DNA of 47,572 nt from Gammaproteobacteria bacterium (GTDB lineage: Bacteria > Pseudomonadota > Gammaproteobacteria > SZUA-140): assembly GCA_016124415.1 (NCBI GenBank), contig WGNS01000059.1, positions 1 through 47,572 of the forward strand, in the 5' to 3' direction. Below the pieces are notes generated by a model. The model did no database searches. It was not told where the DNA came from and saw only the letters and a list, made by a program, of their open reading frames with translations. How positions within the stretch are numbered: the stretch's first letter is position 1; every line of letters starts with the position of its first letter. The translations under genes were made by a program, and so were the position numbers. This document shows, piece by piece, positions 8,622 to 13,457 of the stretch.

Positions 8622-9542
8622 TTAGCGCCGGGTCGCTTCGTCGATGGTCGCCCGGTCGAGGCGCGGCGACAACATCTCCATGAAGGTATACAGGAACTCG
8701 CGCGGCGGCAGGCCGCGACGCAGCGCGACATACGAGGTGCTGGACGCGAACAGATGGCTGGCGTCCAGCATGCGCAGGTTCGGGTCCCGCTCCGGATCGA
8801 AGGCCATACGGGCTACGATGCCCACGCCCAGCCCGATTTCCACATAGGTCTTGATGACGTCCGAGTCGATCGCGGAAAGCGCGATCTTGGGCCTGACGCC
8901 GCGTCTTGCGAAGGCCTCGTCGATGCGTTCCCGGCCGGCGATGGCCTTGTCGTAAGTCACGATCGGGTACTCCGCGATGTCGTCCAGCGTCAGCGGCTGC
9001 TTGCGCAGCAGCGGCAGGCCGGGCGGTGCGATCAGGCAGTGATTCCACTCGTAGCAGGGAAGGGCGATCAGTTCGGCGCTGTTCAGCAGACCCTCGGTCG
9101 CGAGACCGATATCGGCGACGCCGCGGCTCACCCATTGCGCGATCTGGTCGGGTCGTCCCTGGTGGATCTGCAGGCTGATGTGCGGATAGCGTTCGATGAA
9201 CTGGCGGATGACCTGGGGCAACGCATAGCGGGCCTGGGTGTGCGTGGTCGCGATCGAGAGCAGGCCGGTTTCTTCATGGGCGAACTCAGCGCTGACCGCT
9301 TTCATCTGCTCGATCTCCCTGAGCACGCGTTCGGCCATCGCCGCGATGGTCCGGCCCGGCTGGGTAAGGCCCGTCAGGCGTTTACCGTGGCGGTCGAAGA
9401 TCGCGATGCCGAGTTCGTCCTCCAGCTGCTTGATCTGGTGACTGATCCCGGGTTGGGCCGTATGCAGCGTTTCCGATGCCGCCGAGATGTTGAAATCCTG
9501 GCGTACGACCTCTCTGATGTAGCGTAACTGCTGAAGATTCAT
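8622..9542 (-). CDS. cysB: CysB/Cbl-family LysR regulator
   Basis: MNLQQLRY HTH, IATTHTQARYALP, IGLATE and DSDVIKTYV signature; divergent from the sulfur genes. Confidence 0.9.
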   Translation of the reverse strand: MNLQQLRYIREVVRQDFNISAASETLHTAQPGISHQIKQLEDELGIAIFDRHGKRLTGLTQPGRTIAAMAERVLREIEQMKAVSAEFAHEETGLLSIATTHTQARYALPQVIRQFIERYPHISLQIHQGRPDQIAQWVSRGVADIGLATEGLLNSAELIALPCYEWNHCLIAPPGLPLLRKQPLTLDDIAEYPIVTYDKAIAGRERIDEAFARRGVRPKIALSAIDSDVIKTYVEIGLGVGIVARMAFDPERDPNLRMLDASHLFASSTSYVALRRGLPPREFLYTFMEMLSPRLDRATIDEATRR

Positions 9543-9698: not shown

Positions 9699-10478
9699 GT
9701 GGATATAGCCTACATAGTAGCCGGCTTCGCCGTCGGCGGATTGGTTGGATTGACGGGTGTCGGAGGCGGTTCGCTCATGACGCCTTTGCTGATCTTCGGT
9801 TTCGGTATTCCGCCTTTAACGGCCGTGGGTACCGACCTTGTCTTCGCGGCGTTGACCAAGGCGAGCGGCGTCGTAAGCCACTGGAGATTGAAGCACATTC
9901 GCGGATCGCTTGTCGCCTTGATGTTGTTGGGCAGCGTGCCGAGTGCAATGGTGTCGCTCATGCTGCTCGAACACATGCAGGCGGACGTCTCGCGCGTCGA
10001 AGGTTTGATCCATGTCATGCTGGGATTTGCCCTGATCATGACGGCCTTTTCGCTGGTTTGGCGGGGAAGGGTCCAGGCTTTGGGTTATACCGTTAAGCGC
10101 AACTGGCCCGGCGTGTTCCGGTTGCGCCCCGTGCTGACGGTGCTGCTAGGATGCCTGCTCGGCATCCTGGTTCCGGTGTCGTCGATCGGTGCCGGCGCGC
10201 TTGGCGCGGCTGCACTGATGCTGCTGTACCCGGGGATGCCGACGCGCAGGATCGTGGGCACCGATCTGGCTCATGCCGTGCCGTTGACCGCGATCGCGGG
10301 GTTGGGGCATTGGCAGATGGGTTCGGTGGATCCGGCGCTGTTGAGCCAGTTGCTCATGGGTTCCTTGCCGGGCATCTGGTGCGGCACTCAGCTCGGCAGC
10401 AGGGTTCCTGAGCGCTATATGCGCCCGACCCTCGCCGGGATGTTGATGCTCATCGGGGTCAAATTTATCACGGTCTGA
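9699..10478 (+). CDS. TauE/SafE (TSUP) family sulfur-compound transporter
   Basis: GLTGVGGGSLMTP, AVGTDL and IVGTDLAHAVPL motifs; polytopic membrane protein; GTG start. Confidence 0.9.
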   Translation: MDIAYIVAGFAVGGLVGLTGVGGGSLMTPLLIFGFGIPPLTAVGTDLVFAALTKASGVVSHWRLKHIRGSLVALMLLGSVPSAMVSLMLLEHMQADVSRVEGLIHVMLGFALIMTAFSLVWRGRVQALGYTVKRNWPGVFRLRPVLTVLLGCLLGILVPVSSIGAGALGAAALMLLYPGMPTRRIVGTDLAHAVPLTAIAGLGHWQMGSVDPALLSQLLMGSLPGIWCGTQLGSRVPERYMRPTLAGMLMLIGVKFITV

Positions 10479-10524: not shown

Positions 10525-10648
10525 TTCTTACCATGGGATTTTTTTTATTTTGGGGTGTGATCGGGTGCGAAATCGGCTGATGCCGGTTAGAATGCACCCG
10601 TTGAAATCAAGTCGGGTACGGTCTTGTGTCCGCAGGAGTAGGAAAGCA

Positions 10649-12727
10649 ATGAGCGAGATAAAGAGTTTGGTCGATCGCGAAGAACTGCAGCGGTTTGCGG
10701 AAGCGGTCAAGGGTTTTCAAGACGGGTCGATCGATGCCGAGCGCTTCCAGTCCATGCGCCTCCAGCAAGGTGTCTATGGGCAGCGCCAGGAAGGCGTCAA
10801 CATGGTGCGCGTCAAACTGCCCGGCGGACGTCTGAATCCGACGCAGTTGCGTCACTGCGGCCGTGTGCTTGATGAGTGCTCGGAGCACAATGTGGCCCAC
10901 ATCACGACGCGTCAGGACATCCAGATCCACTACGTTCCGCTTGAGAAATCGCCGAAGTCGCTCGAGATCCTGGCGGATGCCGAGCTCACGACCCGCGAGG
11001 CCTGTAACAACACCGTCCGCAACGTATCCGCCTGTCCACTCGCCGGCGTCTGCGCGCGCGAGCATGTCGATATCCGTCCGTATTACGAGACGGCCGTTCG
11101 TCATTTTCTGCGTCATCCCCTGACGCAGCATCTGCCGCGCAAATTCAAGATTTCGTTTTCCGGCTGCGAGTCGGATTGCGCCCAGGGCATGATTCATGAC
11201 CTCGGCGTTATCGCCGTGCACCAGAACGGCCGATTCGGCTTCAAGCTGGTCGCCGGCGGCGGTCTGGGACACAAGCCGCATGAGGCGATCGTTGTCGAGG
11301 AGTTCGTCGAGCCGGGTGACCTGTTGGCCTGCATGGAGGCCGTGATCTCACTGCACAACCGTTATTCCGACCGTAAGAAGCGCGCCAAGTCGCGTATCAA
11401 ATTTCTGGTCGACCGTTTCGGCGCCGAGGGCTTCGTGGGGCATTATCGCGAGGAGCTTGAGCGTACCCGTACGGCGCTTGCCGATGTCGCGATCCCCAGT
11501 GAACAGTGGCGGGCCGGCCGGGCCGATGTCGCCGGTTACGACAATCCGGGCGCGCCGAGGACGATCCTGGCGCAGAAGCAGCCCGGGCTCAACGTATTCC
11601 CGATCAGCGTGCTGACCGGCGACCTGACGGTGCCTCAGATGTACGGCATCGCCGATCTCCTCGAAGCCAACGGTCTCGATGAGTTGGCCGCGACCCAGGA
11701 TCAGAATCTCATGGTCTTCAACGTCCCTGATGACAAGTTGGATACGCTGAAGCAGGGTTTGATTGCGCTCGGCCTGGGTACGCCCAAGACCGGCGACGAC
11801 GTCGTTGCCTGCCCGGGTACCTCGACCTGCCGTCTGGGCATCACGTCGTCGAAGATCATCGGCGCCAAGCTTTCCGGCGGCGCGCACGACCTGCGCATCC
11901 GCGTCAGCGGTTGTCACAACGGTTGCGCACAGCCCGAGACAGGAGACATCGGTATCTACGGCGAGGGCAAGCGCAAGCACGGCAAGCTGATTCCGCATTA
12001 TCAGATGTACATCGGCGGAGATGGCCGCGCTTGCGGGCACATCGCCGTCAAGGGTCCCACCGTCCCGGCGGCCCGTATCGAGTCCGCGATCGGTCGTCTT
12101 CAGCAGACCTACGGCGACCAGCGTGTCGACGGCGAGTCCTTCTTCACGTGGGCCCGCCGCCAGGAGGATGGTTATTTCAATACCCTGCTCGAGGATATCG
12201 TCAACGTCGACCCTGCGGATCTCGCCAGCGTGCAGTCGGATCACGGCGACGTGTCCGCGTTCAAGGTGGAACAGTTCGGCGGCGGCGAGTGCGCCGGCGC
12301 GGCGCAGGAAACCGTGGCCGCGAACTTCGCCGAGGCCGCCAACGAGCGCAATTATCGCAACGCCTTCCTGCTGCAGCGCAAGCACGAGGAATCCATCGAG
12401 TGCGCTCGGGAGGTCGTGCGGCTTGTGGGACAGTCCCTGTTGTTCCTGGCCGGGCAGCCCAGCCGGGACGCGCTGAACGAGATCGCGGAGACGCTCGAAT
12501 CGTCATTCAAGCAGGGAAATACCCTGGGCGGCCGTCTGGCCGAGATCAGTTCGGTCCTGTCCGAGTTGGGCGCCGATTTCGATGAGGCTCGTTTCAAGGC
12601 CCTGAACGAGGCGATGGATCTCTGGACCCTTGAGGCCGCCGAGGCCTGTCAGACGATCGATCAGCAGCTCGACCTGAGCGCGTCGATGCCCAAGGTAGCG
12701 AGAGAAAAAAAAAACTTGAGGGCCTGA
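10649..12727 (+). CDS. Siroheme nitrite/sulfite reductase (probably assimilatory sulfite reductase), frame-0 product of 692 aa
   Basis: GVYGQRQ, RVKLPGG, HITTRQDIQ, LPRKFK, CPGTSTC...SGCHNGC, then GGECAG and a helical C-terminal domain. ATG 10649 has an AGGA SD and is preferred over the ORF-track start at 10496. Confidence 0.9.
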   Translation: MSEIKSLVDREELQRFAEAVKGFQDGSIDAERFQSMRLQQGVYGQRQEGVNMVRVKLPGGRLNPTQLRHCGRVLDECSEHNVAHITTRQDIQIHYVPLEKSPKSLEILADAELTTREACNNTVRNVSACPLAGVCAREHVDIRPYYETAVRHFLRHPLTQHLPRKFKISFSGCESDCAQGMIHDLGVIAVHQNGRFGFKLVAGGGLGHKPHEAIVVEEFVEPGDLLACMEAVISLHNRYSDRKKRAKSRIKFLVDRFGAEGFVGHYREELERTRTALADVAIPSEQWRAGRADVAGYDNPGAPRTILAQKQPGLNVFPISVLTGDLTVPQMYGIADLLEANGLDELAATQDQNLMVFNVPDDKLDTLKQGLIALGLGTPKTGDDVVACPGTSTCRLGITSSKIIGAKLSGGAHDLRIRVSGCHNGCAQPETGDIGIYGEGKRKHGKLIPHYQMYIGGDGRACGHIAVKGPTVPAARIESAIGRLQQTYGDQRVDGESFFTWARRQEDGYFNTLLEDIVNVDPADLASVQSDHGDVSAFKVEQFGGGECAGAAQETVAANFAEAANERNYRNAFLLQRKHEESIECAREVVRLVGQSLLFLAGQPSRDALNEIAETLESSFKQGNTLGGRLAEISSVLSELGADFDEARFKALNEAMDLWTLEAAEACQTIDQQLDLSASMPKVAREKKNLRA

Positions 12728-12954
12728 GCCCGGTCACTGTCGATCTAACGAGCTATGGCTGCCCGCTGCACTTTATTAAGGCGCGCAACGTGCTGAGGTC
12801 TGATGAGACCGACGGCGGTCCCGTCGGCTTCATATTCGCAACAACCGATTTGGCCGAGCAGGCGGTGCGCAGTCTCGAGGCGGACGGTTACCGCAGTCTC
12901 GGTGATGTGCGGGCGATGAACGACGGTCGTGCCGAGGTGACGATAGGACGCTGA
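12715..12954 (+). CDS. TusA/SirA-like sulfur-carrier domain in the -1 frame, with no start codon of its own (probable frameshift extension of the reductase)
   Basis: Hand translation: LEGLSPVTVDLTSYGCPLHFIKARNVLRSDETDGGPVGFIFATTDLAEQAVRSLEADGYRSLGDVRAMNDGRAEVTIGR*. DL..YGCP..FIKA matches the TusA N-terminal motif. No ATG/GTG/TTG between the in-frame stop at 12631-33 and the Cys motif. Confidence 0.8.
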   Translation, partial: LEGLSPVTVDLTSYGCPLHFIKARNVLRSDETDGGPVGFIFATTDLAEQAVRSLEADGYRSLGDVRAMNDGRAEVTIGR

Positions 12955-12988
12955 ACGAGTGCCCGAAACGGGCGAGAAAGGATGCGGC

Positions 12989-13024
12989 AAAAAAAAGGGA
13001 AGGGCGCCGCCGACACCCTTCCCT
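12989..13024 (-). terminator. Rho-independent terminator of the cytochrome c gene
   Basis: AGGGAAGGG...CCCTTCCCT stem with a U-run on the minus strand (A8 at 12989-12996 on plus). Confidence 0.8.
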
Positions 13025-13032
13025 ATGAGGGA

Positions 13033-13383
13033 TCAATTAAGCGTAAGAATGAAATCGACCAGCTTGGCGATATCCTCATCCGATACGCGGGGGGAGTAGG
13101 GGGGCATGGGGACGCCGCCCGTGACAGTGGTCCAGTTGCCTTTTCCACCGGTTTTGACCTTGCCAATCAGCGCGTCACGGGCACCGGCATCGCCTTGATA
13201 GTGCTTGCCGACATCGCGCCAGGCGGGACCAACAACCTTCTTTTCAACCGAATGGCAGGCCAGGCAGCCACTCTTCTGCGCCAGCGCAAGCTCATCTGCC
13301 GCAACCGGGGTCGATACCAGCATCGGAGCGGCCAGAACGCCAGCGGCCATCAGTCCGAGATACGAATTCTTCACAAATCGCAT
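13033..13383 (-). CDS. Periplasmic monoheme cytochrome c (c551/c8-like)
   Basis: Signal peptide, CLACH heme motif, VVGPAW and VPMPP axial Met. ATG 13383 has a GGAG SD. Confidence 0.92.
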   Translation of the reverse strand: MRFVKNSYLGLMAAGVLAAPMLVSTPVAADELALAQKSGCLACHSVEKKVVGPAWRDVGKHYQGDAGARDALIGKVKTGGKGNWTTVTGGVPMPPYSPRVSDEDIAKLVDFILTLN

Positions 13384-13457
13384 ATTCAAAATTCTCCCGT
13401 TTGGAACATAGATAAGATCGTTGTCCCCTCCATGTTCGTAACAATAAACCCGGCAAG

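Follow-up and report, generated by a model that had tools for sequence, protein, structure and literature searches.

Does the sulfite reductase gene of an uncultured gammaproteobacterium end at the stop codon of its open reading frame (ORF), or does it also encode a further domain that is read in another frame? The question is raised by contig WGNS01000059.1 of assembly GCA_016124415.1 (47,572 nt in all, referred to here as the window), in which the frame of a NirA/Sir-type siroheme reductase closes shortly after a run of ten A's (A10) while the -1 frame continues as a TusA/SirA-like domain. An earlier sequence-only reading had proposed that this single gene makes a 692-aa reductase and a reductase-TusA fusion of about 768 aa. 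We compared the locus with its relatives, and we consider it likely that the run is a conserved recoding site with two products (692 aa and 768 aa), made mainly through slippage of RNA polymerase at A10. Two-product recoding from one gene is probably correct and is well supported by comparative genomics; the occurrence of slippage itself and the ratio of the two products are what we infer from the genes.

Under this proposal, templated decoding would yield an assimilatory-type sulfite reductase of 692 aa that stops four codons past A10. In a fraction of expression events the frame would move to -1 at the run, and a TusA-like domain of 79 residues would be appended to give 768 aa. The main cause would be slippage of RNA polymerase on A10 (T10 in the template), with one non-templated A added to produce an A11 mRNA. 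A ribosomal -1 slip on the heptamer A_AAA_AAC may contribute, and both events could act at one site. The residue at the junction would be Lys with polymerase slippage and Asn with a ribosomal -1 shift.

The A-run and the frame that follows it

Read base by base, the 3' end of frame 0 is GAA AAA AAA AAC TTG AGG GCC TGA. The run, the heptamer and the three sense codons that precede the stop lie to the base where the sequence-only reading had placed them (coordinates in Table 1). With the initiating Met at 10649, which was chosen by alignment as the position where homologues begin, arithmetic gives 692 aa for the frame-0 product and 768 aa for the fusion after a -1 shift. The -1 frame has no stop between 12634 and a TGA at 12952-12954 and reads ...KKKLEGLSPVTVDLTSYGCPLHFIKARNVL...VTIGR. 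It holds no ATG, GTG or TTG upstream of the Cys codon at 12760, which confirms the earlier description of a 79-codon TusA-like frame without a start codon before the motif.

A10 is the only run of at least nine A's in the window, where shuffled sequence would be expected to give 0.13 A9 matches. The whole genome (2.19 Mb, 60.2% GC) contains seven A or T runs of at least nine. Two further A9 runs lie in open frames of the same genome (G000), and neither breaks its frame. One of them (C7:9570-9578) encodes in-frame Lys-Lys-Lys 171 nt into an open frame of 2487 nt, and the other (C98:2828-2836, minus strand) encodes Lys-Lys-Lys two codons ahead of the stop of a 1128-nt frame.

Occurrence of the shifted arrangement in relatives

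Reductase residues 400-694 were used as a query, and the best 120 protein clusters (90% identity), out of about 1,200 homologues, were sorted by their C-terminal end. Seventy-three of these 120 clusters were in-frame reductase-TusA fusions of ~765 aa, three were ~687-aa forms without TusA, and 44 were forms of ~690-703 aa that stopped a few residues past KK or KKK. The short forms came from NCBI, JGI, ENA and Logan assemblies and ended in ...EKKNLRA, ...EKKTLRASI, ...DKKKVRSSI or ...EKKRANLSI, the repeated terminal SI being the out-of-frame reading of conserved (I/V)DLT codons.

Genes were then compared as DNA. The set covered every one of the 36 species genomes in the window's family as well as two collection scans, with five duplicates dropped; four family genomes with open frames of in-frame length (G004, G024, G028 and G030) were left out of this comparison. 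A TusA part was found in 34 of the 36 family genomes. The frame relation was determined by a script that looks for a pair of motifs, QLDL in the reductase and CPLH in the TusA part. Of 192 loci, 136 gave no such pair, these being mostly TusA-less homologues or truncated contigs; one locus that it missed (L085) was in frame without a run when inspected.

TusA stood at -1 relative to the reductase at 18 distinct loci, comprising 17 species genomes from five genera of one gammaproteobacterial family (the window included) and a metagenome contig, L170. Every one of them carried an A-run in the linker between QLDL and CPLH, A9 in 13 loci and A10 in five; G002 (L082) and L170, a JGI contig, have A10 like the window. 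Shifted loci without a run numbered 0 of 18, and TusA at +1 was found at no locus. Among genomes with a TusA part, the shifted state was present in g1 (3/3), g2 (3/4), g4 (8/8), g7 (2/2) and g8 (1/1), and the in-frame genera were g3, g5, g6, g9, g10 and g11. The scan of genome contigs (80 loci) returned mostly beta-proteobacterial homologues without TusA, with L002 as its sole shifted locus, and the metagenome scan added two more, L170 and L113 (a duplicate of L105).

By the same script, 33 distinct loci were in frame. Four of these (L001, L088, L089 and L097) had an in-frame A9 encoding Lys-Lys-Lys, and the remaining 29 had no A run of seven or more in the linker. In-frame NirA/Sir-TusA fusions of other Gammaproteobacteria (P0008, P0009, P0040 and P0064) are orthologous to the window gene, with 57-69% identity over the searched region, and share its domain order, its linker position and, as GCPLHY, its Cys motif; they differ in being written in one frame, for the most part without a run. 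Such genes are annotated as 'nitrite/sulfite reductase' or 'sulfurtransferase TusA family protein'. The sequence-only reading had set a shift site conserved among orthologues against simple in-frame fusions, and relatives of both kinds were found: 18 loci keep the shift site with its A-run, and the others are plain fusions, of which four have A9. The refuting checks proposed in that reading mostly did not tell against it. Judged from this survey, the reductase-TusA arrangement is not private to the window.

Conservation of the TusA frame and of the run

The TusA frame was intact at all 18 shifted loci (66-81 aa) and kept its invariant residues. Ratios of nonsynonymous to synonymous substitution (dN/dS) were computed with a Nei-Gojobori script, which gave no value for two of the 11 printed pairs; saturation affected many of the distant pairs. 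Among nine close pairs in which both members are shifted, dN/dS of the TusA part was 0.07-0.38. The window gave 0.11 against L082 and 0.10 against L170, both at dS > 1. Over all usable pairs, the TusA part had a median of 0.35 and the reductase part one of 0.24. By these ratios, the TusA frames are evidently under purifying selection.

Translation of the TusA part as a separate gene was considered and rejected. At 17 of the 18 shifted loci, no ATG, GTG or TTG occurs in the TusA frame between a point 30 nt upstream of the run and the Cys codon, and at nine of the 18 the frame does not become open before the run itself. Past the run, the templated frame of the 18 loci stops within 2-6 codons, the frame reached by one additional A continues for 70-85 codons and the third frame for 1-22. 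A 1-nt insertion at the run joins two conserved frames at all 18.

It might also be supposed that a frameshift mutation cut off a dispensable TusA domain, which now persists as a pseudogene remnant. The reductase is able to function without the domain, which is missing altogether from the beta-proteobacterial homologues of ~687 aa, and the window's domain is the most diverged of the set and fails the TusA hidden Markov model (HMM). Decay does not, however, accord with 18 intact frames, with dN/dS of 0.07-0.38 between pairs that are both shifted and differ by dS of up to more than 1, or with the retention of the invariant Cys, Pro and His. Because the frames are intact, constrained and mostly without a start, neither a decayed remnant nor a separately translated gene fits the data. 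We regard decay as scarcely credible; the comparisons indicate that it is already contradicted by the selection data.

Constraint on the run itself was assessed against 16 invariant Lys, Glu or Gln columns in the 400 codons upstream, across 22 run-bearing loci. None of these 16 control columns keeps a single third base, and the mean share of A at their third bases is 0.29. Inside the run, all 22 loci have A at every synonymous position. Of the Lys codons in the window's genome, AAA is the minority form (30%). The four in-frame A9 loci (dS 0.57-1.34) have only A at 2 of 39 comparable columns, yet their three run Lys codons are all AAA, and in these loci one A more or less leads to a stop within 1-6 codons. 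On these counts, the A run is apparently under selection at the nucleotide level beyond its coding need. This suggests that the run is kept for a second product in the -1 and in the in-frame lineages alike, the in-frame side being represented by four related species.

Origin of the frame offset

The simplest alternative is an error of sequencing or assembly in the homopolymer, the true gene being a plain in-frame fusion with A11. Homopolymers of ten are error-prone, and the window comes from a metagenome-assembled genome that is 80% complete and has a word depth of about 10x. We compared other data sets that contain the window's DNA, as Logan contigs. The X1 contig matches the window exactly. 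X2 and X3, filed under other studies, include a 3415-nt contig of a sister strain with 96 differences in about 780 bases (~12% nucleotide divergence); it has a 6-nt insertion just upstream of the run and no indel in the run. In the same two data sets, low-depth unitigs of a minor strain match the window exactly, stop at 12691 and begin again at 12706. This break at both flanks of the run can be counted in favor of an error; low coverage or heterogeneity of run length could each be the cause.

Error does not explain why the -1 offset recurs at 18 loci and in 44 of the best 120 clusters, from many assemblies and sources and with no +1 case. An A9 of identical phase (GAT AAA AAA AAA G...) is followed by TusA in frame in L001 and by TusA at the -1 offset in L096 and L105, the difference lying outside the run. 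Since A9 goes with either state, depending on the species, the pattern cannot come from a uniform miscall of the homopolymer, nor could correcting one restore all of these genes. Other 8-nt homopolymers of the window's assembly, G8 and C8 runs, sit inside long ORFs and leave them unbroken. In our judgement, an error at the run is hardly tenable.

Phase variation at the DNA level, in which replication slippage would toggle between fused (ON) and truncated (OFF) genotypes, was weighed with the help of a tree. The tree came from a quick IQ-TREE search (LG+G4) on the last ~400 reductase residues of 59 rows, with L106 on a long branch. It needs at least four changes between the in-frame and the -1 state. 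In approximately unbiased (AU) tests, for which the groups were named after the tree had been seen, grouping all shifted loci together was rejected (p-AU 6e-5), as was grouping all run-bearing loci (p-AU 0.001). The offset appears to have flipped several times over evolution, because the tree requires at least four changes and monophyly is rejected.

Such flips would be in keeping with phase variation, as would the mutability of A9 and A10 tracts; poly-A tracts are listed as a cause of it in the available part of Antonov et al. (PMC3711429). The states are nevertheless fixed within clades rather than mixed, with g1 (3/3), g4 (8/8) and g7 (2/2) shifted and g11 (3/3) in frame. All five 90% clusters of the window's genus among the best 120 end in EKKNLRA, no +1 state was seen, and shifted and in-frame kin do not always differ in run length (L096 and L001). 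Phase variation and slippage at the RNA level do not exclude each other, and phase variation as the explanation of this locus seems to us very improbable. One in-frame locus, L093 (G003), is nested on the tree among shifted loci and has a broken run in its linker (AAAGAAAAAC, Lys-Lys-Asn). Its lineage seems to have reverted to a fixed fusion, with the slippery run lost afterwards.

Polymerase slippage or ribosomal frameshifting

The sequence-only reading had favored a stimulated ribosomal -1 shift and had pointed to a hairpin and a Shine-Dalgarno (SD)-like motif as possible stimulators. Both features are present: GGGC-CTGA-GCCC (4-bp stem) at 12720-12731 follows the heptamer, and AAGGT at 12692-12696 lies ahead of the run. 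Neither bears up as a stimulator. The hairpin is not conserved outside the window's genus, AAGGT is coding sequence for Pro-Lys-Val, and no SD-like motif was found upstream of the run in 12 of the 18 shifted loci. Compared with shuffled sequences, downstream folds of the shifted set ranged from z -2.1 to +1.9 (window, +0.70), which gives no conserved stimulator, and upstream folds had a median z of +0.46 and no conserved structure. A search of the site against Rfam at E ≤ 1 returned no frameshift element, only three chance matches of snoRNA type below threshold.

What is conserved is the run. Its length is at least nine in 22 of 22 run-bearing loci, and its codon phase varies (GAA-AAA-AAA-A, GTA-AAA-AAA-AAG and GAT-AAA-AAA-AAA). 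According to the accessible part of Baranov et al. (PMC1088944), selection against A/T runs becomes evident from about 9 nt in many bacteria, and a run of 9A or 9T whose length is conserved among homologues is likely to be one where slippage is put to use; the precedents given there are Thermus thermophilus dnaX (A9) and Shigella mxiE. The same reasoning is applied to two-ORF dnaX genes with A10 in the part of Antonov et al. available to us (PMC3711429).

A -1 ribosomal frameshift on the heptamer, with the mRNA a faithful A10 copy, has evidence of its own. A frame-0 A_AAA_AAN heptamer is present at all 18 shifted loci, in the classical form A_AAA_AAG in L086, L094, L095 and L098, and the offset is always -1. 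The consulted portion of PMC4066793 describes A_AAA_AAC as a proven -1 site in a cluster of insertion sequence (IS) elements with no established stimulator; stimulators are not obligatory. Against the ribosome as the sole agent stand the missing SD-like motifs and Rfam element, downstream folds no better than shuffles, and the features of the run: seven nucleotides would suffice, yet no run is shorter than nine A's; the codon phase varies; and four in-frame lineages that need no -1 shift keep the run as well. We consider a purely ribosomal mechanism unlikely. Transcriptional slippage is ranked first because the run is the sole conserved element, never falls below nine, varies in phase and is kept where no -1 shift is needed. 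Slippage of polymerase on long A runs, which the earlier reading had mentioned as an alternative, is now favored over the ribosome, and the two products from one gene that it had proposed appear to be strongly supported by the 18 loci, their constrained frames and the conserved run.

Several points weigh against a conserved slippage site of this kind. Ribosomal frameshifting explains the -1 offset equally well, and a 'programmed' site looks the same as a frameshift mutation that is permanently rescued by slippage. The 18 loci are kin and represent at least four changes of state, not 18 independent events. X1 may be the source of the window's DNA, and the X2 and X3 entries seem to be duplicates of a single data set. 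The TusA domain of the window's genus has diverged, with DGY in place of DGH, and the window's own peptide escapes the family models (next section). All statements about the function of the domain are speculative.

Identity of the C-terminal domain

The window's -1 peptide on its own gave no match to Pfam or NCBIfam at E ≤ 0.1, and none to PF01206 (TusA) even at E ≤ 1, so a TusA HMM scan of this frame finds nothing. PF01206 was matched by 29 of 33 aligned relatives (best E 5.2e-13), to whose C-terminal domains the window peptide is 33-83% identical. A profile searched against the PDB matched 1jdq at E 0.031. An AlphaFold2 model predicted from the relatives' alignment had a predicted local distance difference test score (pLDDT) of 92.1, and its top match in Foldseek was 3hz7, a SirA-like protein (E 8.4e-4; template modeling score, TM, 0.79). 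Further matches were YeeD in the YeeE-YeeD complex (8k1r, TM 0.81) and E. coli TusA (3lvj_C, TM 0.77). In this model, the -1 domain is TusA-like in its predicted fold, a two-layer alpha/beta sandwich. The TusA identity of the window's domain, which the sequence-only reading had claimed, thus stands on the matches of the relatives and on the predicted fold, and finds no backing in an HMM match of its own.

The conserved Cys (codon 12760-12762) lies within the motif GCPLHF. The canonical active-site motif of TusA is CPxP. In all 33 aligned sequences the Cys and the first Pro are invariant, and the position of the second Pro is occupied by an invariant His, CP[LVM]H; the invariant residues of the TusA part are D, L, C, P, H, A, R, G, S, L and G. 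Compared with TusA, SirA and YeeD (PF01206; 3hz7, 8k1r and 3lvj), the domain shares the predicted fold (TM 0.77-0.81) and a Cys at the N-terminus of helix 1. It differs in having CP[LVM]H rather than CPxP and in being fused rather than free-standing, and the window copy is below the reach of Pfam.

Members of the window's genus (L081, L082, L083 and L170; window 12739-12951) have DGY or EGY where all other lineages have DGH. In the same genus, the last strands of the TusA part differ and the Pfam model is missed, with purifying selection at dN/dS of about 0.1. The DGY/EGY divergence may reflect a genus-specific change of function.

The reductase gene and its neighborhood

The frame-0 protein matched NIR_SIR (PF01077, E 7.5e-47) and NIR_SIR_ferr (PF03460, E 2.6e-27) in Pfam. 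It reached no curated NCBIfam equivalog, the best scores being 215-217 bits against cut-offs of 523-594. The only other NIR_SIR gene detected in the 80%-complete genome was NirB (772 bits). We read the window's enzyme as an assimilatory sulfite reductase, an inference from context that is based on its CysB and TauE neighbors and on the separate NirB gene. The regulator is divergent from the operon, and the permease lies directly 5' of the reductase gene (Table 1).

The reductase ORF extends upstream to 10496, and the extension is probably non-coding. The TauE stop (10478) is separated from the reductase start (10649) by a leader of 170 nt, which contains a T8 run (10539-10546).

The C-terminal extension of the reductase, of ~170 aa (residues ~520-690; window 12200-12700), matched no Pfam family. 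It is well conserved, with an invariant GGGEC, W661 and a QxDxQLxL motif, and the beta-proteobacterial forms that lack TusA have it too. The reductase of Nitrosomonadaceae, Gallionellaceae and relatives (L012-L080, including Nitrosospira and Nitrosomonas isolates) ends just past QLDL at ~687 aa, and the motif script detected no TusA part in these homologues.

A GC hairpin after the TusA stop, as described in the earlier reading, is present. Farther 3', window 12989-13024 consists of A8 followed by a GC-rich 13-bp palindrome, which on the minus strand reads as a hairpin plus T7. The reductase-TusA gene and a cytochrome c gene (13033-13389, minus strand) converge here and seem to share this apparent terminator, which may act in both directions.

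Table 1. Positions of the reductase-TusA gene, its recoding site and adjacent features in the window
Feature	Position	Strand	Basis or remark
CysB-family LysR-type regulator	8622..9542	-	NCBIfam NF009327, 464 bits (cut-off 402)
TauE/SafE-family permease	9699..10478	+	Pfam PF01925 (TauE), E 5.5e-44
NirA/Sir-type siroheme/[4Fe-4S] reductase, 692 aa, ending ...AREKKNLRA and stop	10649..12727	+	Pfam and homologue alignment
A10 slippery run (putative recoding site)	12705..12714	+	Direct reading; kept as A9/A10 in relatives
Frame-0 heptamer A_AAA_AAC	12709-12715	+	Followed by three sense codons and the stop
Frame-0 stop TGA	12725..12727	+	4 codons past the run
TusA/SirA-like domain, 79 codons plus stop, no start of its own	12715..12954	+	-1 frame, alignment, predicted fold
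Small GC hairpin GCCCG-AAA-CGGGC, 5-bp stem, no T tail	12961..12973	+	3' of the TusA stop; not called by the terminator scan
13-bp palindromic hairpin, preceded by A8 on + (T tail on -)	12996..13024		Terminator-like site on the minus strand

Comparison with known recoded genes

The reductase-TusA sites resemble the -1 frameshift sites of E. coli dnaX and copA and of IS1 and IS3 in their zero-frame A_AAA_AAN, in the -1 direction and in the pairing of a long and a short isoform. The shift shortens the protein in E. coli dnaX and copA, whereas in the window it would lengthen it, and here the run is always at least nine long. The E. coli dnaX frameshift site has an SD sequence and a stem-loop. Neither element is conserved at the reductase-TusA sites.

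Closer parallels are found in genes expressed through slippage, namely T. thermophilus dnaX (A9), Shigella flexneri mxiE (T9) and IS elements with 9A, as described in the available sections of PMC1088944. They too carry a homopolymer of 9-10 of conserved length within a coding region. According to the same sections, mxiE and the IS elements likewise consist of two ORFs joined only by one extra base, and T. thermophilus dnaX likewise gives two products, one of them minus its C-terminal part. No flanking stimulator is required in genes of this kind. The present case differs in that the gene encodes a core metabolic enzyme whose optional part is a sulfur-carrier domain, and in that it is known from genes alone. 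It differs also in having sister lineages with the same run in frame, so that the default product differs by clade.

The kind of mechanism is known, and we found no description of the reductase-TusA case. Our searches found no literature that pairs transcriptional slippage, or TusA together with a frameshift, with sulfite reductase. On a fused TusA and sulfite reductase, or on assimilatory sulfite reductase together with TusA, nothing pertinent was found among titles and in the accessible part of PMC10839748. The terms sulfite, TusA, SirA and nitrite are absent from the first 300,000 characters of PMC5009743, from the main text of PMC3711429 and from the available text of bioRxiv 10.1101/2025.10.02.679949; the supplementary tables of these catalogues could list the family. 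The organisms are represented by uncultured genomes that are later than those recoding surveys.

Implications

Relatives of the window gene have no domain, a fused domain, a fused domain with an in-frame run, or a domain at -1 with a run. From this range of states, the domain thus appears to be useful but not needed on every enzyme molecule. The A run would set the number of reductase molecules that carry it. Lineages with an in-frame A9 would make mostly fusion and some truncated enzyme, and -1 lineages mostly plain enzyme and some fusion.

A tethered Cys domain of the TusA/YeeD type beside a siroheme reductase suggests a hand-over of sulfur at or near the active site, in line with the earlier reading, in which the domain could trap the sulfide product in persulfide form. 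The Cys may take up sulfur at or near the siroheme, or pass sulfur on. Interception of a partly reduced intermediate in the manner of DsrC is an analogy from dissimilatory enzymes. A complex prediction for the reductase body (residues 3-685) and the TusA part gave no answer (score 0.00) and is evidence neither way. One may go further and picture the run as an evolvable dial of stoichiometry, with both forms made in every run-bearing lineage, single-base changes flipping the default form and the CP-x-H domain acting as a built-in acceptor of the DsrC type. This is a possible but doubtful extension of the argument. If it were true, sulfur from the siroheme site would be split between free sulfide and a protein-carried pool.

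Conserved recoding is rare in bacterial housekeeping and metabolic genes, the textbook examples being dnaX, prfB and copA, besides phage tail genes and mobile elements. In the present case, a core enzyme of sulfur assimilation appears to make two isoforms through a homopolymer run. Gene callers split or truncate such genes, and 44 of the best 120 clusters are stored as products of ~695 aa. The TusA domain is hence invisible in annotation across a family of uncultured sulfur-cycle Gammaproteobacteria. The natural series from no TusA through fused, and fused with an in-frame run, to -1 with a run makes the role of the ratio testable. The site also suggests that an assimilatory-type siroheme reductase works together with a TusA-like Cys domain with an unusual CP-x-H motif, a pairing so far unstudied.

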